From: a bacterium
GTDB taxonomy: Bacteria > Patescibacteriota > Minisyncoccia > JACQLN01
Reading direction: 5' to 3'
Assembly (NCBI GenBank): GCA_030697795.1
Contig: JAUYOV010000004.1
Location: 11,831 to 75,830 of the forward strand
Length of the DNA stretch: 64,000 nt
This document shows, in pieces, positions 6,400 through 35,391 of the stretch. The position numbers were made by a program, and so were the translations under genes. The notes beneath the pieces are model-generated. The model ran no database searches and had not been told where the DNA came from. It worked only from the letters and a program-made list of their open reading frames with translations. Within the stretch, counting starts at the first letter, position 1. Each line of letters begins with the position of its first letter.

Positions 6400-7146
6400 T
6401 TAATTATATTTTCCCCTCCACAAATTTAATCTTACTTTTATAGTATCACGTAACACGCCTAAATAACCTGATAACTTTACATGGCTCTCGGCATCGTTTT
6501 CCCAATAAATAGGAATGATGCTAATTTTATACTTGAATTTTCTAGCCAGAGCCAACACCTCTACATCAAAACCCCAACGATTTATGGTTGCCTTAGAAAA
6601 TATTTTATTAGCAGCTTCAGCCGAAAAACCCTTAAAGCCATTCTGCGTATCCCAGATGCCAAAAACAGCCACCACCTGAATAAAAATATTGCCCATATTG
6701 CCCAGCAAACGCTTAAAGGCTGGTTGCGGTATGGCTTGCGTAGCCCCGATGGCATCTTTATAATCACGCGAGCCAATAACAACATGGAAGCCCTCTTTGA
6801 ATTTGGAAATCATTTTTTCTAGATGCTTGATATCTGTAGAATTATCGGCATCGGTAAAAACCCTGTACTCACCCTTGGCTTCTAGCATGCCTTGCTTAAC
6901 CACAAAACCTTTGCCGTGGTTTTGCTTATTACTGATTACTTTTAACTGGGGCCAATCTTTGGCCAATTTTTGAGCTACCTCGGCCGTGGTATCTTTGGCG
7001 CCATCTACCACAACCAAAACTTCATATGTATAATCTTGAGCAGATAAATATTCCTTGACTCTTTGGAGGGTTTTAGCGATTCTTTTTTCTTCGTTATAAG
7101 AGGGAATTATTATAGATATATATGGATCCATATTGTTTTGATTCAA
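6400..7146 (-). CDS. Family 2 glycosyltransferase (dolichyl-phosphate sugar transferase-like)
   Basis: ISIIIPSYNEE...DADNS GT2 motifs (DxD). Confidence 0.75.
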   Translation of the reverse strand: MNQNNMDPYISIIIPSYNEEKRIAKTLQRVKEYLSAQDYTYEVLVVVDGAKDTTAEVAQKLAKDWPQLKVISNKQNHGKGFVVKQGMLEAKGEYRVFTDADNSTDIKHLEKMISKFKEGFHVVIGSRDYKDAIGATQAIPQPAFKRLLGNMGNIFIQVVAVFGIWDTQNGFKGFSAEAANKIFSKATINRWGFDVEVLALARKFKYKISIIPIYWENDAESHVKLSGYLGVLRDTIKVRLNLWRGKYN

Positions 7147-7204
7147 TTATAGCAAATCCCGTTAGAAACAGCCCGCCCGTGGCGGGCGCGATTTCTAACG
7201 GGAC

Positions 7205-7238
7205 ATAAAAAAACGGCTCCGTTTTTTGTACGGAGCCA
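7205..7238 (-). terminator. Rho-independent terminator after the 7247..7594 gene
   Basis: GGCTCCG-loop-CGGAGCC hairpin followed on the minus strand by a U-run (plus-strand AAAAAAA at 7207-7213). Confidence 0.6.
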
Positions 7239-7246
7239 TAACACCA

Positions 7247-7594
7247 CTATTCGATCTTACCCAATTCGAGCTTAAGCTCTTGCGTCAACTCAGCTAGCTC
7301 ATCTTCATGTTCGCTTGGCTTTTCTGTTTGTTGTACTAACAAACTTAATTGGATCTCTTCACGGACATCTTCTGCTATGCATGCTTTCATTTCTTCTTCT
7401 TGTTTATCTGAAAGAGGCATTGTACCAACAACCAAAGTGAACTTAGCCGGGTTTGTAAAAACAATAGAGCACTTTGTACATATGTAAAGTGGCGACTTGT
7501 TGAAAGTGTCATCAGTTATAAGATCTTGTGAATGACCTATAGATTCATAATCTCTATTGCCACAAACCGCACACTTAAAAGAAACTTTATCCAT
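7247..7594 (-). CDS. Hypothetical protein with N-terminal CxxC...CxxC zinc-ribbon and acidic C-terminus
   Basis: ORF only; CAVCGN...CTKCS. Confidence 0.4.
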   Translation of the reverse strand: MDKVSFKCAVCGNRDYESIGHSQDLITDDTFNKSPLYICTKCSIVFTNPAKFTLVVGTMPLSDKQEEEMKACIAEDVREEIQLSLLVQQTEKPSEHEDELAELTQELKLELGKIE

Positions 7595-7612
7595 TTTTGC
7601 CTCCTTTTTGAT

Positions 7613-7837
7613 TTAGTTAGCCATAGTTAACATTTTTTGCAACGAAATTTCTCCTGTGTAGTAATCCTTATACTTTACGTAGTCTGTGATAAAAATATAA
7701 GCCAAGGAAAAAATAGATCCAAAATGTAAAGAAAGCCAGCTTACTAATCCGTTTTGAAATTGGTGAAAGAACCAAAACGAGGTAAGACCCCAAATCAAAA
7801 TCCCAACACAAGCATGCTGCCTATCGGAAAGTTGCAT
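7613..7837 (-). CDS. Small hypothetical membrane protein
   Basis: Hydrophobic 74-aa ORF in a gene-dense minus-strand run. Confidence 0.3.
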   Translation of the reverse strand: MQLSDRQHACVGILIWGLTSFWFFHQFQNGLVSWLSLHFGSIFSLAYIFITDYVKYKDYYTGEISLQKMLTMAN

Positions 7838-7885
7838 AAATAACCTCCTTTTTAAAGGTACAAAGCTTGAACTAAAATACCAGAA

Positions 7886-8257
7886 TTACGCTATGCGGTC
7901 AAGATAGGTCTGTAAAATAAGCGCGGCGGACGATTCGTCTATTTTTGTAGAATTTTCCGCAGCCATTTTAGAAGAAAATATTTCGTTAATAGTTTCCACC
8001 GAAACATCGGTGCGGGCTTCTAGATCTTCGGAAAATTCAATAATTTTTTGGGCAAACTCATTTACTTCGCCGTTAAAACTTACAGGAATTCCGACAATTA
8101 TTTTTTCTACAGCTTCCGTATTAACAATATCGGCGAGTTCGTTTAAAACGCCTTCGCTATTTAAAATAGTTTTTAAAGGTGTCGCTATTTTTAATAAACT
8201 ATCCCCCTTGGCTAAACCTATTCTTTTTTCACCATAATCAATTCCTAAATAAATCAT
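7886..8257 (-). CDS. ruvX: Holliday junction resolvase-like RuvX/YqgF
   Basis: MIYLGIDYGEKRIGLAKGD N-terminus. Confidence 0.85.
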   Translation of the reverse strand: MIYLGIDYGEKRIGLAKGDSLLKIATPLKTILNSEGVLNELADIVNTEAVEKIIVGIPVSFNGEVNEFAQKIIEFSEDLEARTDVSVETINEIFSSKMAAENSTKIDESSAALILQTYLDRIA

Positions 8258-11884: not shown

Positions 11885-14806
11885 ATGGTAACCAATATGG
11901 ATCTCTCTAGATTTAAAAAAGAACTAGGCGCCTTAAACCCCGAACAACGCCAAGCGGTGGAGACAATTGAGGGACCGGTTATGGTTATAGCCGGCCCTGG
12001 TACGGGAAAAACACAAATTTTAACTTTGCGGATTGCTAATATTTTAAACAAAACCGACACCAACCCCGAAAATATTCTAGCTTTAACTTTTACTGAATCT
12101 GCTACCGCCAACATGAGGCGTCGTCTAACCAGTTTGATCGGTACGCCTAGCTACTACATTAATATCCATACTTTTCACGGTTTTTGTAACAAGCTTATCC
12201 AAGATTACCCAGAAAACTTTCCAAAAATAATTGGCTCCACCAATGCTAATCAAGTAGATCAAATACAAATTATTAGAAAGATTATAGACGAGCATGGTTT
12301 TAAGAATTTGAAGCCATTCGGTAGTAAGTATTATTACGTTACCGAAATACTAAAAAACATCCGCCAATTAAAAAGCGAAGGTATTGGTCCTGTTGAATTT
12401 AAAAATATAACTTCTAAAATAAATCTCGAAGACCCCAAAGAGGAAAAAAATACCGAACGCTTAAAAGAACTATCTTTGGTATATAAAAAATATCAAGCCG
12501 AACTTTCAAAAAGAAAGCTATACGATTTTGAAGATATGATTTTGGAAACCATAAATTCGCTCAAAAAAGATAAGGATTTTTTGTTAGACCTTCAAGAAAA
12601 ATACCAATACATATTAGTAGACGAACACCAAGACACCAACGGCGCCCAAAATAAAGCCTTAGAGCTTTTAACCAATTATGATGAGAACCCAAACTTGTTT
12701 GTGGTAGGCGACGAAAAACAAGCTATTTACCGTTTTCAAGGCGCTAGTTTAGAAAACTTTTTATATTTTAAAGAAAAGTTTAAAAAAGCGAAATTAGTAG
12801 AATTAAAACAAAATTATCGCTCTACCCAAAAAATATTGGATGCCTCACATAGCTTAATAAAAAAAAATATAGCTGTCTTGGCTTTAACCAAACTCCAAGC
12901 CCAAAAAGGCAGGACCGACCTTCCTAGAAGGTCGGTCCTGCAGGTGGCAACCTGCGCTACACCCGAAATAGAATACCTTTTTATAACTCAAAAAATAAAA
13001 GAACTTCTAAGGCAAAAGGTTGAAGCTAGCAAAATTGCAATCTTATATAGAGAAAATAAAGATGCTTTTTCTGTTTCCGACTTTTTAACTAAACAGAATA
13101 TAAAACACGGCATAGAATCCGATGAAAACATATTAGAAGATATGGATATTAAAAAACTAAATATTCTTTTTGATGCCATAGAAAACTTTCCTTCTTTAGA
13201 ATTTTTAGCTCCAGCCTTACACCTAGATTTTTTAAATATAAACCCCTTAGAAGCTTATAAAGCCATAGAATCAAAAGATTTTAATAGTTCGCCTAATGTG
13301 TCTAACCTATTTAAAAAAATAGGTGAGCTTAAAAAATATAGCCGTAATAATGTTTTTGTTAAATTTTTTGAAAAAGTAATAAACGATACTGGTTTTTTAA
13401 AAAACATACTGGCCGAGGCCAATTACAACGAAAGATTAAATAAACTTCATGCTTTGTTTAGCGAAGTTAAAAAAATAAATTTTGCTAACCACAATTTTTC
13501 TTTACCAAACTATCTAAATCATTTAGAAATTTTAAGGGAACATAACTTGCCTATTCAAATTAAAACAAAAACATTACCCGCAAATGTTCGCTTAATGACG
13601 GCTCACCGAGCCAAAGGCCTAGAATTTGATTATGTATTTATTATAGGCGCCTACAATGGCCATTGGGGCAATAAAAGAAATATGAGCCATATAAAACTCC
13701 CCATAAAAACAAGCTTTGATGCTGATAAAATAGAAAAAAACGAGGATGAGCGCAGATTGTTTTATATGGCCATCACTCGAGCCAAAAAAGAAGCTTACAT
13801 AAGTTATTCCACTTCTTCGTTTGACGGCAAAGAGCAAGTGCCTAGCCAATTTATAAACGAAATCGATCCCGCCTTAAAAGAAGAACATATAATTGAGCAA
13901 AATCCAGAAATTAAAAAAATTGTACTAGCTTCAATTTCTAATAACAAAGCACCAAAAACAAATGAAAAAACTTTTGTGGTAGATATATTTTTGCGCCGTG
14001 GCTTCTCGCCTACCTCGCTAAATAATTATTTAACCTGCCCCTGGAATTTTTTCTATAACAATCTGCTTCGCATACCCAAAGCCCAAGCCAACTATTTAAT
14101 TTATGGCAACGCCAAGCACAAGGCCTTACAGCTTTTTTTTGATGAGAAAGAAAAAAATAAAAAAATAGGCTCTAAATTTATAATAGAAAAATTTATAGAA
14201 GATTTACGAAATTACCCTTTAATACCGAAGGATCATGAAACCTTGCTTAAAAAAGGAATAGAAAGTTTAACCGCCTATTATAATTTTTATAAAGATTCTT
14301 GGCCCGAAAAAACAGTAAACGAATACAACATTAAAGGAGTTAGTTTTAACTTAGGCGCGCAAGAAATAAAACTAAGCGGAAAACTAGATCGCTTAGAACT
14401 AAAACCAAATAGCCCAGCTGTTACAGTAGTAGATTACAAAACTGGAGCCGCCAAAAGCCGAAACGAAATTTTAGGCAACACCAAAAACGCCGATGGTAAT
14501 TATTTTAGACAACTTGTTTTCTACAAATTGCTTTTAGATATGTTACCCAACAAAAAATATAATATGCTGGCTGGTGCAATTGACTTCACTGAACCCCTCG
14601 ACTCCGCTCGACAAGGCTCGGGGCAAGCCGCTCGGGGCAAGCCTGCCTTTAAAAGAGAGGTTTTTGAAATTTCTAACGAAGAAACAAAAGCACTTAAAGA
14701 AACTATCACTAAATGCGCAAATGAAATTTTAAACTTAAAATTTTGGAACAAACTCTGCGGTGAAAAAGATTGTGAATATTGCGAGTTAAGAAAGTTAGTT
14801 TCTTAA
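11885..14806 (+). CDS. UvrD/PcrA-family SF1 helicase fused to a C-terminal PD-(D/E)xK nuclease domain with a Cas4/AddB-like Cys cluster
   Basis: AGPGTGKT Walker A, DEHQDTN motif II, DRLELK...VVDYKTG nuclease core, C...CGEKDCEYC. Contains two in-frame GC-rich inserts. Confidence 0.8.
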   Translation: MVTNMDLSRFKKELGALNPEQRQAVETIEGPVMVIAGPGTGKTQILTLRIANILNKTDTNPENILALTFTESATANMRRRLTSLIGTPSYYINIHTFHGFCNKLIQDYPENFPKIIGSTNANQVDQIQIIRKIIDEHGFKNLKPFGSKYYYVTEILKNIRQLKSEGIGPVEFKNITSKINLEDPKEEKNTERLKELSLVYKKYQAELSKRKLYDFEDMILETINSLKKDKDFLLDLQEKYQYILVDEHQDTNGAQNKALELLTNYDENPNLFVVGDEKQAIYRFQGASLENFLYFKEKFKKAKLVELKQNYRSTQKILDASHSLIKKNIAVLALTKLQAQKGRTDLPRRSVLQVATCATPEIEYLFITQKIKELLRQKVEASKIAILYRENKDAFSVSDFLTKQNIKHGIESDENILEDMDIKKLNILFDAIENFPSLEFLAPALHLDFLNINPLEAYKAIESKDFNSSPNVSNLFKKIGELKKYSRNNVFVKFFEKVINDTGFLKNILAEANYNERLNKLHALFSEVKKINFANHNFSLPNYLNHLEILREHNLPIQIKTKTLPANVRLMTAHRAKGLEFDYVFIIGAYNGHWGNKRNMSHIKLPIKTSFDADKIEKNEDERRLFYMAITRAKKEAYISYSTSSFDGKEQVPSQFINEIDPALKEEHIIEQNPEIKKIVLASISNNKAPKTNEKTFVVDIFLRRGFSPTSLNNYLTCPWNFFYNNLLRIPKAQANYLIYGNAKHKALQLFFDEKEKNKKIGSKFIIEKFIEDLRNYPLIPKDHETLLKKGIESLTAYYNFYKDSWPEKTVNEYNIKGVSFNLGAQEIKLSGKLDRLELKPNSPAVTVVDYKTGAAKSRNEILGNTKNADGNYFRQLVFYKLLLDMLPNKKYNMLAGAIDFTEPLDSARQGSGQAARGKPAFKREVFEISNEETKALKETITKCANEILNLKFWNKLCGEKDCEYCELRKLVS

Positions 14807-23653: not shown

Positions 23654-26044
23654 TTAGGAAAAATTTTCTTTGTTTTCCTCTTCTGTGTGTATATCTATAG
23701 CTTCTGGTGGAACTTCTGATTTTACTAAAACCTCTCTAGGTTTAGCCCCTTCACCGGGACCAATCATGCCTTGAGCTTCTAGAATATCGAGTAATCTTGC
23801 GGCGCGGGCGTAGCCGACTCTTAATCGTCTCTGGAGTAAAGAAGCCGAAGCTTTACCAGCCTGCATAATAGCTTCTTTGGCTTGGAGTAAAAGTTCATCT
23901 TCGTCACTAGAATCCATTTTATCAAAACTTACACCGGTAAGTATTGGTCTATGATCTGAGACAGCTTTTTCCAAACCAAGCGCTTCTTCTGGATTAGCAT
24001 CAGGCGCGTCTTCGGGTAGATTAGATCTTATAAACGAAACAACTTTTTTAACTTCTTTTTCCGAAACAAAAGTGCCTTGAATACGTTTGGGCTTGGGCGA
24101 ATCAGAAGTTACAAAAAGCATATCGCCCATGCCTAAAAGTTTTTCGGCGCCAGCCGAATCTATAATTGTCCGTGAATCTATTTGCGAAGCCACCGCAAAA
24201 GCTATGCGCGTGGTAATGTTAGCTTTAATTAAACCCGTAATAACTTCTACCGAGGGCCGCTGTGTGGCTAAAACCAAATGTATGCCCACCGCCCGCGCCA
24301 TCTGCGCTAAACGCACTACTGTAGCTTCTATTTCACGCCCGTAAGTAGACATTAAGTCGGCCAGTTCATCTATAATGATAACCAAATAAGGCATTAAATC
24401 GTCGCCTTTTTTAGCATCAACTTGAGAATTAAAACCGCCAATATCTCTAACTTTTTTTTCGGAAAGCAGGCTATATCTTCTTTCCATTTCTGAAGTCGCC
24501 CATTTTAAAGCCGACACCGCTTTTTTAGGCTCTACTATAACTGGGGTTAAAAGATGCGGAATACCATTATACAAAGTTAATTCAACTCTTTTAGGATCAA
24601 TCATTATAAAGCGTAAAATTTCTGGCGAATGTTGATACAGCAAATTAACAATTAACGAATTTATGGCTACGCTTTTACCCGAACCCGTGGCGCCCGCAAT
24701 AAGCAGATGAGGCATTCTGGTTAAAGCCGACCACATCGACCGGCCAGAAACATCTTTGCCTAAACCAATATTTAAAAAGTTTTTATGCTCCGAAGCCTCA
24801 AAACCCTGAAGCAAAGCTTTTAAACGCACCACCATAGATTTTTGATTGGGTATTTCTATGCCCACTAAAGATTTTCCCGGAATCGGCGCTTCTATTCTTA
24901 AAGATTCTCCGCCTAGGGCTAAAGATAAATCTTTTTGCAAAGCTAATATGCTAGCCAGTTTGACTCCAGTGGCTGGTTTTAAAGTAAACTGGGTTACCGC
25001 AGGGCCAATATTAACTTCCGACATTTCTACCGGAATATTAAAATTCTCTAAAGTTTTCTGAATAATTATGGCATTGCCCTTAATGTCGCCCGTCACCGGC
25101 ATAGAGCCTTCGTCTTCTAATAAATCTAATGGTGGAAATTTATAGTTAACGGAAAGTGGCAACACACTAAATCCGCTCGCCATATTTTCTTGTTTCTTTT
25201 TTGAAACCTCATCTGACTTGGCCATTACTGACGTACCTTGAGGAGAATTTATAGTGACAGTGTCTTCAGCCGGTTTGGGCGCTTCAACTTTTTTAGCGGT
25301 TTGAGGTAGTTTAGCTTTGCTGGCTAACGTTGCAATTTTAGTTACTAAACCTTTTTCTAAAACTAATTTTTTTTCTGGAATCATTTCGCCATTTTCGTCC
25401 GCCTTAAAAACAAATTTTTCTTTTATTTGATCTTTCAAAGGCAAACGAAAAACAATCAACATAGCCGAAAAGAAAAACGCCACAAAAAATATTAAAGAAC
25501 CCCAAAAACCAAACATCTGCCTAAACGGCCAGCCAAAATAATAACCCATTTTACCGCCAGCCTGATTTTGCGAAAATATTTCCATCAAGCCCAAAAAACT
25601 TAAAATTAGAACACTGCCCCCGATTATAGTGGAACCTAATATTTTTTTCTTGTCGGAAGTTAAAATAAAAAACGACATTAAAAACATCGTTAAAGGCACA
25701 AAGAAACTACCGGAACCAAACATATAATCGGCACCGGCTGTAATGGCTTCGGAAAAAGATCCCGACAAGCCAAAGAAAGCTAAGGTAGTTACCAAAGCCA
25801 CAGCCAGCAAAAGAACGCCCACTACGCTTCTTTTAACGCTTGATTCTAAATGGAGCCAAGAAGTTGTTCTTTTTGGCTTTTTTACTTGAGATTTTTTAAG
25901 ATTTTTAATATCCTCCTTTTCTTTTTCAGCAGGCATTAGGTTTAATCTATTACTAGAAAATAATAACATACAAAAAAGCCAAATAACAACAACGTTTTTC
26001 AGGAAGGGCGGTCCTTCCGATAGATTTCCTGCTATTTTTGGCAA
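23654..26044 (-). CDS. ftsK: DNA translocase FtsK/SpoIIIE; true start downstream of the ORF-track start, whose first codons overlap a REP
   Basis: GATGSGKS Walker A, C-terminal gamma wHTH domain, N-terminal TM segments. Confidence 0.9.
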   Translation of the reverse strand: MPKIAGNLSEGPPFLKNVVVIWLFCMLLFSSNRLNLMPAEKEKEDIKNLKKSQVKKPKRTTSWLHLESSVKRSVVGVLLLAVALVTTLAFFGLSGSFSEAITAGADYMFGSGSFFVPLTMFLMSFFILTSDKKKILGSTIIGGSVLILSFLGLMEIFSQNQAGGKMGYYFGWPFRQMFGFWGSLIFFVAFFFSAMLIVFRLPLKDQIKEKFVFKADENGEMIPEKKLVLEKGLVTKIATLASKAKLPQTAKKVEAPKPAEDTVTINSPQGTSVMAKSDEVSKKKQENMASGFSVLPLSVNYKFPPLDLLEDEGSMPVTGDIKGNAIIIQKTLENFNIPVEMSEVNIGPAVTQFTLKPATGVKLASILALQKDLSLALGGESLRIEAPIPGKSLVGIEIPNQKSMVVRLKALLQGFEASEHKNFLNIGLGKDVSGRSMWSALTRMPHLLIAGATGSGKSVAINSLIVNLLYQHSPEILRFIMIDPKRVELTLYNGIPHLLTPVIVEPKKAVSALKWATSEMERRYSLLSEKKVRDIGGFNSQVDAKKGDDLMPYLVIIIDELADLMSTYGREIEATVVRLAQMARAVGIHLVLATQRPSVEVITGLIKANITTRIAFAVASQIDSRTIIDSAGAEKLLGMGDMLFVTSDSPKPKRIQGTFVSEKEVKKVVSFIRSNLPEDAPDANPEEALGLEKAVSDHRPILTGVSFDKMDSSDEDELLLQAKEAIMQAGKASASLLQRRLRVGYARAARLLDILEAQGMIGPGEGAKPREVLVKSEVPPEAIDIHTEEENKENFS
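26000..26032. repeat. REP1 palindrome CAGGAAGGGCGGTCCTTCCGATAGATTTCCTGC at the 3' end of RAYT-1
   Basis: Further copies at 26526-26542 (inside RAYT-1), 26735-26750, 59691-59722; related sequence inside the helicase CDS at 12909-12941. Confidence 0.8.
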
Positions 26045-26706
26045 TCTTTATAGGAAAGCCAATCAAGAATAAAATCATCAAAGTCCTTTACACCGTCGAA
26101 ATAATCTGGAAAAGCTTTTTTGTTGATAATTTTTTGCTCTAATCTTTGAACACCTACATAATCAAGATAACTGGAATAATTATAACCATTTAAAAAATTT
26201 TGGGCCGCTAATTTATTTTTAATACCAGTTTCTTTCCAGTTAGGTTCAATCAACTTAATAGAATTTAAGTGTGTATAGGCAAAAATATATTTCAGATATT
26301 CATCTCTTTCAATATGTTTTGCTTGAAACCTTCCCTGAAATAAAGAACCGCTACGATCATGTCTTTTATTGAAATACATGGAATAACCGGTGGATACTTT
26401 TCCCATAAATTTAGAGAGTCCACCTTCTACAGTTTCTCTTGCAAGTAAATGGAAATGATTCGGCATTAATACATGTGCGCCTAAAGCAGTAATATCATCG
26501 CCAGTATTTACATCAAAAATATCTGGGAAGGACCGCCCTTCCAAAAGAAGCTCATTGATATCTACACGGTCATTGTTATTACAAAGATAAAGGAGCATCA
26601 AAAAACGTCTATATTCGCCTGTAGATTCAAATATAGTCCTCTTATCCACACCTCGATTGTAGATATGATAATATTCCCCTACAGAGAAAGTGAATTTACG
26701 TTGCAT
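26032..26706 (-). CDS. REP-associated tyrosine transposase (RAYT; IS200-like HuH Y1 transposase), copy 1
   Basis: GEYYHIYNRGV, HuH motif LMPNHFHLL, catalytic-Tyr helix region; flanked by REP1 palindromes. Confidence 0.7.
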   Translation of the reverse strand: MQRKFTFSVGEYYHIYNRGVDKRTIFESTGEYRRFLMLLYLCNNNDRVDINELLLEGRSFPDIFDVNTGDDITALGAHVLMPNHFHLLARETVEGGLSKFMGKVSTGYSMYFNKRHDRSGSLFQGRFQAKHIERDEYLKYIFAYTHLNSIKLIEPNWKETGIKNKLAAQNFLNGYNYSSYLDYVGVQRLEQKIINKKAFPDYFDGVKDFDDFILDWLSYKDCQK

Positions 26707-26766: not shown

Positions 26767-26795
26767 TTGACACAGGATTGGCTATGGTTTAGACT
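26767..26795 (+). promoter_or_regulatory. Putative sigma-70 promoter (TTGACA-N17-TAGACT) for the tRNA cluster, followed by a 15-nt tandem direct repeat at 26806-26835
   Basis: Hexamer match only; weak -10. Confidence 0.3.
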
Positions 26796-26840
26796 GATTT
26801 TTACTGTTCTTCATGATAAAGTTCTTCATGATAAATAAGT

Positions 26841-26918
26841 GTCGGGGGTAGCTCAATTGGTCAGAGCGGCTGACTGTGGATCAGACTGTGTCGGTTCAAA
26901 CCCGGCTCCCCGGCACCA
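26841..26918 (+). tRNA. tRNA-His (anticodon GTG) with G-1:C73
   Basis: Manual cloverleaf: G-1, acceptor TCGGGGG/TCCCCGG, D-arm GCTC/GAGC, anticodon loop CTGTGGA, T-arm GTCGG-TTCAAAC-CCGGC. Confidence 0.7.
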
Positions 26919-26927
26919 AAATTTAAT

Positions 26928-27013
26928 GGGCGTGCGGCTGAAAGGACTCCTCTGGACAGTTGGAGAAATCCGATTGAAGCTGGTGTCAGGAAATCCAGTC
27001 ACGCCCACCAATC
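26928..27013 (+). other. tRNA-like element (perfect 7-bp acceptor-type stem GGGCGTG/CACGCCC, terminal ACCA) with no canonical cloverleaf
   Basis: 86 nt between the two tRNAs. Possible degenerate class-II tRNA or tRNA-derived structured RNA; identity unresolved. Confidence 0.3.
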
Positions 27014-27017
27014 GTGT

Positions 27018-27123
27018 TCCGCGGTAACTCAGAGTGCTGACTTAAGGGCCGCAAGCCCCGGCCGGTTAGAGTGCCTAGCTGATAACTAGGAGGTCGTTGG
27101 TTCGAATCCAACCCGCGGAGCCA
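27018..27123 (+). tRNA. tRNA-Ile (anticodon GAT) carrying a ~31-nt hairpin insertion in the D-loop
   Basis: Acceptor TCCGCGG/CCGCGGA, D-stem ACTC/GAGT, anticodon arm CCTAG-CTGATAA-CTAGG, T-arm GTTGG-TTCGAAT-CCAAC, G73-CCA. Insert 27033-27063 AGTGCTGACTTAAGGGCCGCAAGCCCCGGCC. Confidence 0.5.
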
Positions 27124-27127
27124 AAAA

Positions 27128-27162
27128 CAAATCCCGCTTAGGCAAAAACGCCAAGCGGGATT
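27128..27162 (+). terminator. Rho-independent terminator after the tRNA cluster
   Basis: AAATCCCGCTTAGGC...GCCAAGCGGGATTT hairpin plus T-run. Confidence 0.6.
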
Positions 27163-27621
27163 TTATATTTTTTCTAACCATTTTTCTTTACCACAAACTA
27201 GGCAGATGACTCCGTGCAAAGCCTCTGATTGATTTTCTACTTCCCAAATCACAGATCTTGATACTGGAAGATTTATCTTTGCCGTATAACCTAAAAGTAG
27301 GGTCTGATTCTGTCTAACAAAATCAACTATACTCATAACACCAAGCTTAATCGCTTCAAAAAAGAATCCAGAAATAAAATCGGTGCGTGCGCCATAATTA
27401 ACTTCAGATTCCCAAACAAAGACATTCTCTTTTAGTTGAAAAAAAATAAGAGGTAATGAGTCTTTAAAAATAACTGCTCCTGGCGGAGCATCTTCTGGAG
27501 TATTTGCTATAAAAGTAAAAACCCTATTAACTATATCCATCTCCGGAAAATTAATAATGATCACGCCAGTATATTCTCTAGATATTTTTGTAACAGTAGA
27601 AATGTCCAGCAATAGAGACAT
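27163..27621 (-). CDS. Hypothetical protein
   Basis: ORF only. Confidence 0.4.
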   Translation of the reverse strand: MSLLLDISTVTKISREYTGVIIINFPEMDIVNRVFTFIANTPEDAPPGAVIFKDSLPLIFFQLKENVFVWESEVNYGARTDFISGFFFEAIKLGVMSIVDFVRQNQTLLLGYTAKINLPVSRSVIWEVENQSEALHGVICLVCGKEKWLEKI

Positions 27622-34734: not shown

Positions 34735-35391
34735 ATGAGAAAAACAATTTTGGCCGAAGGCGAATATTATCATATCTATAATCGTGGTGTAGAGAAAAGA
34801 AACATATTTTTAAACGATAACGATAAGTGGCGATTTATGACCCTCTTACTAATATTTCAAGGCAAGGGTCATATTGATAATATGCAACGTATTGTTAAAC
34901 TTGTTCAACATTCAATGTTGAACAAAGAACCATTTGACGACATCCTTTTGAATAAAAAGGTTGAACTGATATGTTTCTGTCTGATGCCAAATCATTATCA
35001 CCTTATATTAAAAGAAATTAAAAATGGAGGAATTTCTAGTTTTGGGCAAAGATTAGGTAACAGTTATACAAAATATTTCAACACTAAATATAAACGCACT
35101 GGACACTTATTTGGTGGAAGATTTCAAACGGTTCACATAACTCAAAATACATATCTCAAACATTTATCTTCTTATATACACAATAATCTAACAGAACTAA
35201 ATAATTGGAAAAAATTGGAAAACGAATATTTTTGGTCAAGTCTGCCAGATTATGTAAATAAAAACCGATGGGATAAGTTTCTAAACCCGGAAATAATTCT
35301 AAACCAGTTTAGGGGTAAAAATGATTATCTAAATTACATCAAAAATAATCGAAACAAAATTAAAAAACTAGATGGTTACTATATAGATTAA
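34735..35391 (+). CDS. REP-associated tyrosine transposase (RAYT), copy 2
   Basis: GEYYHIYNRGV, LMPNHYHLIL HuH motif; paralog of 26032..26706. Confidence 0.7.
   Translation: MRKTILAEGEYYHIYNRGVEKRNIFLNDNDKWRFMTLLLIFQGKGHIDNMQRIVKLVQHSMLNKEPFDDILLNKKVELICFCLMPNHYHLILKEIKNGGISSFGQRLGNSYTKYFNTKYKRTGHLFGGRFQTVHITQNTYLKHLSSYIHNNLTELNNWKKLENEYFWSSLPDYVNKNRWDKFLNPEIILNQFRGKNDYLNYIKNNRNKIKKLDGYYID

Follow-up and report, generated by a model that had tools for sequence, protein, structure and literature searches.

A putative patescibacterial stable-RNA operon that joins tRNA-His to a cloverleaf-like RNA and a tRNA-Ile-derived gene with a hairpin in its D-loop

What is to be made of a transfer RNA (tRNA) gene that carries a hairpin of its own inside the D-loop? 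Few shapes in biology are as constrained as the tRNA fold, and to our knowledge no extra helix has been accepted in it apart from the variable arm of class II tRNAs. The gene in question, here called Y, lies in a 64,000-nucleotide (nt) stretch of contig JAUYOV010000004.1 (assembly GCA_030697795.1, positions 11,831 to 75,830; the window, meaning the whole stretch that was analysed), which comes from the uncultured Patescibacteria genome of a groundwater bacterium. It closes a cluster at positions 26841-27123 in which it is preceded by a tRNA-His gene and by a second odd element, X. A reading made from the sequence alone had described X as unclassifiable and Y as a novel insertion or intron, or else a disrupted tRNA, in what might be a recombination scar. 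The answer to which we lean, with confidence slightly above an even bet, is that the three genes form a stable-RNA operon specific to this lineage, with a genuine tRNA-His and two RNAs derived from tRNAs, that the hairpin of Y is retained, and that X and Y would serve as non-decoding tRNA mimics.

The D-loop arm of element Y and its counterparts

Element Y was delimited with a purpose-written structural scanner, which looks for a T-arm, a complementary acceptor stem, U8, a D-stem and an anticodon stem and leaves the length of the D-loop free. Its parts are as follows.

27018-27123, plus strand: element Y, 106 nt, a five-arm tRNA-like gene probably derived from tRNA-Ile(GAU)
27018-27024 and 27113-27119, plus strand: acceptor stem TCCGCGG/CCGCGGA, 7/7 paired
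27027-27030 and 27069-27072, plus strand: D-stem ACTC/GAGT, 4 base pairs (bp)
27031-27068, plus strand: D-loop, 38 nt
27033-27063, plus strand: extra arm, a surplus of 31 nt between A14-G15 and G18-G19
27079-27085, plus strand: anticodon loop CTGATAA on a 5-bp stem (CCTAG/CTAGG), with GAT at 27081-27083
27096-27112, plus strand: T-arm GTTGG-TTCGAAT-CCAAC
27120 and 27121-27123, plus strand: G73 and CCA

Once the 31 surplus nucleotides are set aside, Y fits the cloverleaf of a bacterial elongator tRNA-Ile(GAU), with stems of 7, 4, 5 and 5 bp, a 7-nt anticodon loop with U33, GAU and a purine at position 37, and a TTCRA loop in the T-arm; U8-A9 are present, and the variable loop (AGGTC) has 5 nt. 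The D-loop, at 38 nt, fails the canonical length of about 7-11 nt. The sequence-only reading had held the gene to be canonical everywhere except for 27033-27063, between D-loop positions of about 16 and 18, and this is borne out, the insert lying between nt 15 and G18, where normal tRNAs too differ in length. ARAGORN, the check it had proposed, left Y uncalled and returned tRNA-Ile(gat) only after deletion of these 31 nt in silico. A standard tRNA folding from different boundaries was also looked for, and the 30.1-bit Rfam match to Y proved to be mis-registered, since its alignment starts inside the insert and leaves four non-pairs in the acceptor stem. The insert is predicted to form the hairpin GGGC-CGCAA-GCCC, closed by CUG/CGG and with a bulge ACUUAA, and it folds on its own in the constrained five-arm fold of Y.

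The scanner was then applied to fetched loci, designated by L-numbers, of which the bacterial ones come from related metagenome-assembled genomes (MAGs) and the others are viral contigs. Ordinary tRNAs at these loci all have D-loops of 7-13 nt. Among the fetched bacterial loci, D-loops of 30-57 nt occurred only at the locus of the putative operon, namely in the window (38 nt), in L004 and L065/L066 (30 nt), in L068 (57 nt) and in L069 (51 nt), with inserts of 24-50 nt across the family, and no five-arm candidate was returned from 1.0 Mb of shuffled sequence. When the five Y-type genes (window, L004, L065, L068 and L069) were aligned with their inserts removed, all 110 cells of the 22 core pairs held standard pairs (100%), and 14 of these pairs had changed on both sides. 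The tertiary pair 15-48 covaries as well (G-C in four cores, A-U in L069), and U8, A14, G18-G19, A21 and the TTCRA T-loop are kept in all five genes; the retention of these tertiary-contact nucleotides is what places the insert between nt 15 and G18.

Each insert forms its own hairpin, and L004/L065, L068 and L069 have different hairpins at the same site. The unconstrained minimum-free-energy (MFE) structures of L004, L065 and L068 are already five-arm cloverleaves, the insert of L004 is a continuous hairpin of 7-8 bp, and the long inserts of L068 and L069 are homologous, with a main stem kept, on our reading of the alignment, through two double changes (GGCCGUU/AACGGCC versus GGUCGC/GCGACC). 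Deleting the inserts across the family lets ARAGORN call Ile(GAT), Asn(GTT) and others. Because every core pair has been kept through many compensatory changes, these do not appear to be broken genes, and the idea of a disrupted tRNA or a recombination scar is at odds with an insertion site common to orthologues and paralogues in four other genomes, with intact, covarying cores and self-contained insert hairpins.

The anticodon arm differs from copy to copy. L004 and L065 share an identical acceptor stem with Y, and their anticodon loop is replaced by CGCGA or CGAGAA on a 6-bp stem; between these two copies the acceptor, D-arm and insert are identical, and changes in the cap loop are the sole differences. 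ARAGORN reads both as 'tRNA-Gly(acc)', which we judged to be a forced mis-registration. The gene of L068 is Asn(GUU)-like, with an 8-bp acceptor followed by C and CCA and with a canonical anticodon loop. The variable loop and T-arm of the L004 copy form an exact 21-nt match to E. coli tRNA-Ile genes, the sole E. coli feature matched (E = 2), and together with the GAU loop this is a pointer to, not proof of, descent of Y from tRNA-Ile. C stands at position 33 in four of the odd loops, a position at which U is universal in tRNAs. The non-canonical anticodon-like loops with this repeated C33 read CCGCGAG (L004), CCGAGAAG (L065), CCAAAAA (L069), GCCAAAA (L007) and CCCUUAA (the viral contig L124), and CCAAAA is common to L007 and L069.

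Viral loci were first run through the scanner as its negative control, and a five-arm tRNA-like gene was found in the temperate-phage contig L124.

5794-5918 of L124, minus strand: tRNA-like gene with five arms, a D-loop of 57 nt and an ACCA end, whose MFE structure is a five-arm cloverleaf

This gene has the loop CCCUUAA with C33 and a U1xC72 mismatch, and it is situated downstream of an S24 repressor and an open reading frame (ORF) with an Acb2/Tad1 domain (6496-7134, 7203-8066) and upstream of RecT and YqaJ. The ORF with the Acb2/Tad1 hairpin domain, just upstream of the gene, belongs to an anti-defence family.

An earlier scan of viral contigs, built on the window-type flank motif (CTCAGAGTG...CCGG..AGAG), gave 58 matches, each of them chance or a protein-coding gene. 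The IMG/VR collection was scanned with the pattern GTAGCTCAG, 25-55 nt, AGAGC, 24-27 nt, GGTTCRANTCC, which gave 91 matches; 23 had compatible acceptor, anticodon and T stems, and 18 of these were distinct. Three of the 18 were discarded as tandem-fragment artefacts, and two more as class II-like suppressors (L164 and L168, in our judgement CUA amber suppressors with the loop CTCTAAA and a long variable arm with a 7-nt loop, and not D-loop insertions). About 13 phage five-arm tRNA genes remain, 10 with 7/7 acceptor stems and most with canonical anticodon loops, and ARAGORN misses or misreads them. The gene in L209 sits inside a tRNA array, between Thr, Thr and Gly, Asp, and that in L204 has tRNA genes within 300 nt; a search for conserved neighbours of the phage genes found none. 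In several phage examples the hairpin follows G18-G19, that is, it occupies the other variable pocket of the D-loop. At the level of sequence and predicted fold, these genes show the D-loop hairpin to be a recurrent natural design, and such recurrence raises the odds that RNAs of this kind are mature and functional.

Seven phage contigs from unrelated samples (L143, L174, L147, L221, L187, L204 and L141) have nearly the same acceptor (GCGCNNG/CNNGCGC), A73 and no CCA. The anticodons in this group are CCU, UGC, UUC and UUU, the UGC gene being without G3-U70, and a conserved scaffold with a variable anticodon is the pattern also seen in the Patescibacteria Y family.

Element X, tRNA-His and the putative operon

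The element between the two tRNA-like genes was delimited from an alignment of four versions.

26928-27010, plus strand: element X, an 83-nt cloverleaf-like RNA without an anticodon
26928-26934 and 27000-27006, plus strand: acceptor-like stem, a perfect 7 bp (GGGCGTG/CACGCCC)
26936-26947, plus strand: hairpin C, with a GAAA loop
26948-26956, plus strand: invariant single strand UCCUCUGGA
26957-26976, plus strand: hairpin A, 8 bp, with a GAAA loop
26979-26999, plus strand: hairpin B, 5 bp with an 11-nt loop, set directly against the 3' acceptor strand in the manner of a T-arm
27007-27010, plus strand: A73 and CCA

The perfect acceptor-like stem and the ACCA end had already been recognised from the sequence; the length is 83 nt and not the 86 nt then given, and the absence of a cloverleaf is contradicted by the four versions, which support a four-way, cloverleaf-like fold. 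These versions (alignment A1) are the four distinct sequences of the window, L034 (identical to L054), L004 and L065 (identical to L066), and the homologues in L034, L004 and L065 occupy the same chromosomal spot, from DUF3105 to ftsK. Over 23 pairs the four-way fold has 94.6% of cells paired, against 27-49% for slid-partner controls (n = 4 sequences), and four pairs are altered on both sides, with each of the three hairpins contributing one or more. Hairpin C reads GGCU-GAAA-GGAC in the window and GGC-GUGA-GCC or UGC-GUGA-GCA in the relatives, and the loop of hairpin A is of the GNRA type across versions. Far from unclassifiable debris, X thus has the marks of a conserved structured RNA, cloverleaf-shaped and with neither an anticodon loop nor the T-loop consensus, the four sequences being suggestive of this and not conclusive.

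The discriminator of X is A in three versions and U in L034, and this variation argues against a fixed synthetase identity. No Rfam family matched X at E<=10 in a 551-nt search, nor did any match the relatives. A covariance model of X run over 37 sources (421 kb of related loci) gave no further homologues, and a metagenome scan with the core pattern of X returned only the L034 duplicate and one chance match; on the strength of these two scans X appears to be confined to a narrow clade. Targets of its invariant CUCCUCUGGACAG were sought in the window, and nothing convincing was found.

The remaining features of the locus and its borders are these.

26767-27163, plus strand: the whole putative RNA operon (promoter, tRNA-His, X, Y, terminator)
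26767-26795, plus strand: sigma-70-type promoter, TTGACA-17 nt-TAGACT (consensus scan, 10/12 matches)
26841-26918, plus strand: tRNA-His(GTG) with encoded G-1 and an 8-bp acceptor helix, then A and CCA (ARAGORN; Rfam tRNA, 51.6 bits over 26842-26914)
27129-27163, plus strand: intrinsic terminator hairpin, then a U-tract (fold -21.9 kcal/mol, z = -6.9)
27163-27621, minus strand: convergent ORF of 152 amino acids (aa), which shares the operon terminator
26032-26706, minus strand: RAYT-like Y1 transposase ORF (Pfam Y1_Tnp; NCBIfam REP_Tyr_transpos below cut-off)
34735-35391, plus strand: second Y1/RAYT-like ORF

The tRNA-His named in the earlier reading is upheld by both tools, and a near-identical orthologue lies in L034 (13818-13896, minus strand). 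In the window and in L034 this gene has the usual 8-bp helix with G-1:C73, yet a 4-nt ACCA overhang follows and not CCA directly after C73; either the encoded end is trimmed and rebuilt, or the lineage has an unusual tRNA-His end. The promoter and a leader motif, ACTGTTCTT, are kept at the same place in L034, L004, L007 and L065, and the terminator is conserved in L034 and L002. The spacers between the three RNAs measure only 7-9 nt, and NCCA stands at the end of all three. Given the promoter, the terminator and these short spacers, the simplest reading is that 26767-27163 is one tricistronic stable-RNA operon, presumably co-transcribed and processed at its ends as tRNAs are. The leader (26806-26835) contains a perfect 15-nt tandem duplication, GTTCTTCATGATAAA twice, just upstream of tRNA-His, which is absent in L034, and a 62-codon GTG ORF (26839-27027, plus strand) that overlaps tRNA-His and X is almost certainly spurious.

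Under the reading that we favour, the operon would be transcribed from its own sigma-70 promoter and ended by its intrinsic terminator, and each RNA would be released in a tRNA-like manner, by RNase P 5' of the acceptor-like stem and by 3' trimming to the encoded NCCA. Y would be a tRNA-Ile(GAU) paralogue with a structured hairpin grafted into the D-loop pocket between nt 15 and G18, and this hairpin would stay in the mature RNA as a fifth arm, neither intron nor damage. X would be a cloverleaf ending in NCCA, with GNRA tetraloops at the tips of its 'D' and 'anticodon' arms, and both RNAs would be compatible with the L-shape. The role selected in X and the Y family would be that of non-decoding tRNA mimics, which read no codons, and a part in conflicts over tRNA-targeting enzymes is our leading guess.

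The RNAs occupy a 456-nt gap between the RAYT-like ORF and the 152-aa ORF, among the largest gaps of the window. A scan of species-representative genomes with MreB placed the window among Patescibacteria, with relatives (MreB 86-95% identical) labelled Yanofskybacteria, Parcubacteria, Minisyncoccia or Sungbacteria. The surrounding genes are housekeeping ones: DnaG, S6, SSB, sigma-70, RecA, a helix-turn-helix (HTH) protein and FtsK on one side of the RNAs, and DUF3105, a DsbA-like protein, MreC, MreB, ProRS, RseP and RRF on the other. HisRS was considered and rejected as the identity of the class II synthetase upstream of mreB, which is ProRS. The order ProRS-mreB-mreC-dsbA-DUF3105-[RNAs]-ftsK-HTH-recA recurs in many Parcubacteria MAGs, so that the putative operon is chromosomal and no prophage remnant; BLAST of the cluster against phages and plasmids gave nothing beyond generic similarity to tRNA 3' halves.

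A RAYT-like ORF does adjoin the cluster, as had been noted from the sequence, although it ends 135 nt, not 100 nt, upstream of tRNA-His; we take it as context only. A motif resembling repetitive extragenic palindromic (REP) elements, AAGGGCGGTCC, has four exact copies in the window (26004, 26530, 26740 and 59695) and six with one mismatch, against 0.7 expected, and the copies at 26004, 26530 and 26740 bracket the ORF at 26032-26706. The motif also adjoins the RNA operon in L034 and L004, and L004 has a RAYT-sized ORF on the opposite side of the operon.

The contents of the DUF3105-ftsK spacer vary among relatives. Sequence identity between the window and L034 is ~90% over the RAYT end, the promoter, tRNA-His and X and over the terminator and the gene that follows; their third genes are unalignable except for the D-arm motif and the T-loop. 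The GACTTAA (GACUUAA) and hairpin of the window insert are common to the L034 gene, whose acceptor has 9 bp, whose anticodon arm is expanded and which lacks CCA. L002 (MreB 95% identical) has the same terminator and different RNAs (13575-13870, minus strand): one is tRNA-like and has 9 bp in its acceptor, one is a tRNA-Gly(GCC) whose D-loop measures 13 nt, and the third is branched and 118 nt long. L007 (13600-13763, minus strand) has a hairpin RNA together with a tRNA that combines the alanine pair G3-U70 with U73 and a 9-nt loop, and other branched RNAs lie in L068 (2010-2085) and L135 (3700-3835), both on the minus strand. The spacer RNAs of other Parcubacteria include multi-stem RNAs of 76-136 nt with z-scores of -3.9 to -5.1; no Rfam match was obtained for the odd spacer RNAs of L002, L007, L068 and L135, and some relatives have small ORFs in the spacer instead of RNAs. 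Assemblies often break at the RNA locus, as in the 100-N scaffold gap of L005 (8343-8442) and in contigs L067, L070, L071 and L072, which end at the operon terminator or at nearby palindromes, and these breaks are consistent with strain-level variability or repeats. Such turnover between conserved ends suggests that the DUF3105-ftsK spacer is a cassette-like hot spot and might reflect a conflict-driven system.

Alternative readings of X and Y

The most serious rival, which we think possible and still rather unlikely, is that Y is a working elongator tRNA-Ile(GAU), charged by isoleucyl-tRNA synthetase (IleRS) and five-armed on the ribosome, its extra arm being tolerated or useful, for example as a shield from tRNA-cleaving toxins. 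The perfect 5-bp anticodon stem, the loop CUGAUAA (with U33, A37 and A38), all tertiary-contact nucleotides and the encoded CCA speak for it, as do the equally canonical loop of the Asn(GUU) version in L068 and the phage five-arm tRNAs with canonical loops in a tRNA array, such as that of L209. Window Y, which has every sequence feature of an isoleucine anticodon arm, may additionally, or still, decode. Against decoding stand the orthologues in L004 and L065, which have an identical acceptor stem and no 7-nt anticodon loop: those genomes must read isoleucine codons with another tRNA, and the family would thus be maintained without decoding. By parsimony the window genome, seen here through 64 kb, would also hold a canonical tRNA-Ile. 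The identity set of E. coli IleRS comprises A73, C4-G69, C29-G41, U12-A23 and the anticodon loop. Y has the last two and departs at G73, G4-C69 and U29-A41, as well as at U1-A72, the rules being those of E. coli and perhaps not those of this host or phylum; moreover, an extra arm might interfere with the contacts that the ribosome makes at the elbow. Decoding is therefore probably not the conserved role of the Y family, and we give the non-decoding tRNA mimic the edge over a working five-arm tRNA-Ile.

Several observations weigh against the reading we favour. There are only four versions of X and five of Y, some of them closely related, and L004 and L065 are identical for 120 nt upstream, so that their identical Y cores say little about selection. 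The cloverleaf-constrained fold of window Y (-35.3 kcal/mol) lies 2.6 kcal/mol above an MFE structure (-37.9 kcal/mol) that is not a cloverleaf, and the window insert, taken by itself, is no more stably folded than shuffled versions (z = +0.23). The perfect anticodon loops of the window (GAU), of L068 (GUU) and of most phage examples suit decoders as well as mimics, and a search of the spacer and neighbourhood for partner proteins or toxin-antitoxin genes met only housekeeping genes and unannotated small ORFs.

Decay is a quite improbable account, in which X and Y are tRNA pseudogenes or recombination debris left by the neighbouring RAYT/REP element or by integrations recurring at tRNA genes. 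The operon does have a RAYT-like gene and REP-like motifs at its flanks, the third gene differs wholly between the window and its close relative L034, and assemblies often break at the locus. Yet no pair is broken among the 22 core pairs in five Y-type genes, which show many double changes, X keeps its three hairpins through compensatory changes, the promoter and terminator are intact and conserved, and in L065 the operon is present without an adjacent RAYT. The insert is also unrepeated: no second copy was found in the 64-kb window with up to 3 mismatches, and it is unrelated to the local motif AAGGGCGGTCC, so that a copy of a REP element, a miniature inverted-repeat transposable element (MITE) or another mobile element was rejected. 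We regard it as very improbable, too, that the 31 nt are a short intervening sequence, removed by some endonuclease and an RtcB-type ligase to give a 75-nt tRNA-Ile, or cut without ligation to give a two-piece tRNA. Group I and II introns have a ribozyme core of over 200 nt (P1-P9 or domains I-VI) and usually lie in the anticodon loop, and a bulge-helix-bulge (BHB) intron has two 3-nt bulges, with a 4-bp helix between them, at the exon-intron borders. Removal would fit the existence of archaeal D-loop introns and the textbook tRNA-Ile that is left by deletion of 27033-27063. It would also suit the wealth of introns and rRNA insertions in Patescibacteria (PMC13011429). The insert, however, is shorter than a group I or II intron by an order of magnitude, stands in the D-loop and has no match to Intron_gpI or gpII at E<=10. 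When a BHB was sought by hand, with the D-stem taken as its outer helix, GUGC proved unable to pair with GUUA in the window, as did GUGU with GGCA in L004, so that no BHB is formed and the novel intron of the earlier reading finds no support. Its stems of 4-8 bp would be too short for RNase III, and the conserved flanks AGUG...CCGG, with G15 and G18G19 in register, are as expected for a retained arm.

For X, descent from a diverged housekeeping RNA (4.5S RNA of the signal recognition particle, SRP; the tRNA-like domain of transfer-messenger RNA, tmRNA; or a Y-RNA-like YrlA) is the account to which we give hardly any weight. Its terminal stem, NCCA-like end and GNRA-capped hairpin followed by GAAGC are reminiscent of 4.5S RNA. 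In helix 8 of SRP RNA, the GNRA loop is 2-3 bp from a symmetric loop (AGG / AGCA); in X the tetraloop is 8 uninterrupted bp from GAAGC within a four-way fold, and there was no SRP match, nor any other Rfam family, at E<=10. The tRNA-like domain of tmRNA has G3-U70, a T-arm with a TTCRA loop and an attached mRNA-like region; X has G3-C70 and the 11-nt loop UGUCAGGAAAU, and ARAGORN finds no tmRNA. Beyond this locus, we put forward as a tentative and rather doubtful generalisation that five-arm tRNAs, L-shaped and with a structured hairpin in either D-loop pocket, are an overlooked natural class in candidate-phyla-radiation bacteria and diverse phages, invisible to tRNAscan-type tools, which may be decoders resisting tRNA-targeting nucleases or decoys in conflicts of that kind, the DUF3105-ftsK spacer of Parcubacteria being a fast-turnover cassette site.

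Comparison with known systems

Full-text literature searches returned no report of D-loop arms in Patescibacteria or phage tRNAs. If the hairpin, conserved, covarying and met with independently in reduced-genome bacteria and in phages, is what it appears to be, the tRNA elbow would tolerate or exploit a fifth arm, and the tRNA inventories of uncultured lineages and phages would be systematically incomplete. The anticodon-less versions of Y, together with X, would enlarge the small set of bacterial tRNA mimics with non-translational roles, and the speed with which cassettes turn over at one fixed place in the chromosome is a hint of a conflict system.

Class II tRNAs (Leu, Ser, Tyr) likewise draw a fifth helix from a length-variable region of an L-shaped tRNA; their arm lies between the anticodon and T stems (44-48), whereas Y has its arm in the D-loop, flanked by nt 15 and 18; several phage genes have theirs after G19. 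The non-decoding tRNA-like RNAs, such as B. cereus tRNA-Other, the tRNA-like module of YrlA and the structural tRNA-Val/Phe of mitoribosomes, reuse the tRNA fold beyond codons, as X and the L004/L065 versions of Y may do. They appear to have no kinship of sequence or context with our RNAs; no rsr gene lies near the operon, and X carries GNRA caps where a tRNA has its D and anticodon loops. Archaeal tRNA genes have non-canonical D-loop introns, which are of the BHB type and cut by EndA, and these, like the group I and II introns of bacterial tRNAs, resemble the inserts in being extra sequence outside position 37/38; in contrast, the inserts of the Y family have neither a BHB nor a ribozyme core, measure 24-50 nt and look like a retained arm. 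In a survey of Patescibacteria tRNA introns, the group I introns described lie in the anticodon loop, and just one group II intron of a D-loop is mentioned, from another phylum (PMC13011429).

The closest precedent is provided by the irregular tRNA polycistrons and allo-tRNAs described by Mukai et al. (2017, NAR 45:2776; PMC5389517; reviewed in PMC7609411), some of which are chargeable yet unused in translation. Like the window operon, these are odd clusters of tRNA genes missed by standard tools, in which several non-canonical genes are co-transcribed (as predicted here), and the likeness extends to extra loops or five-stem junctions, G-1, lengthened acceptor helices, diverse or meaningless anticodons and transposon-related genes nearby. 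The architecture differs: in the Mukai tRNAs the acceptor/T geometry is 8/4 or 9/3, the variable arms are long and an extra 'E-loop' separates the acceptor stem from the D-stem, whereas Y is 7/5 with a variable loop of 4-5 nt and its arm in the D-loop, and X is 7/5-like with a 2-nt linker. Their hosts are Acidobacteria, Clostridia and Proteobacteria, in contrast to the Patescibacterium studied here, near whose operon no toxin-antitoxin genes were found, and the companion RNA X also sets the window operon apart from those polycistrons.

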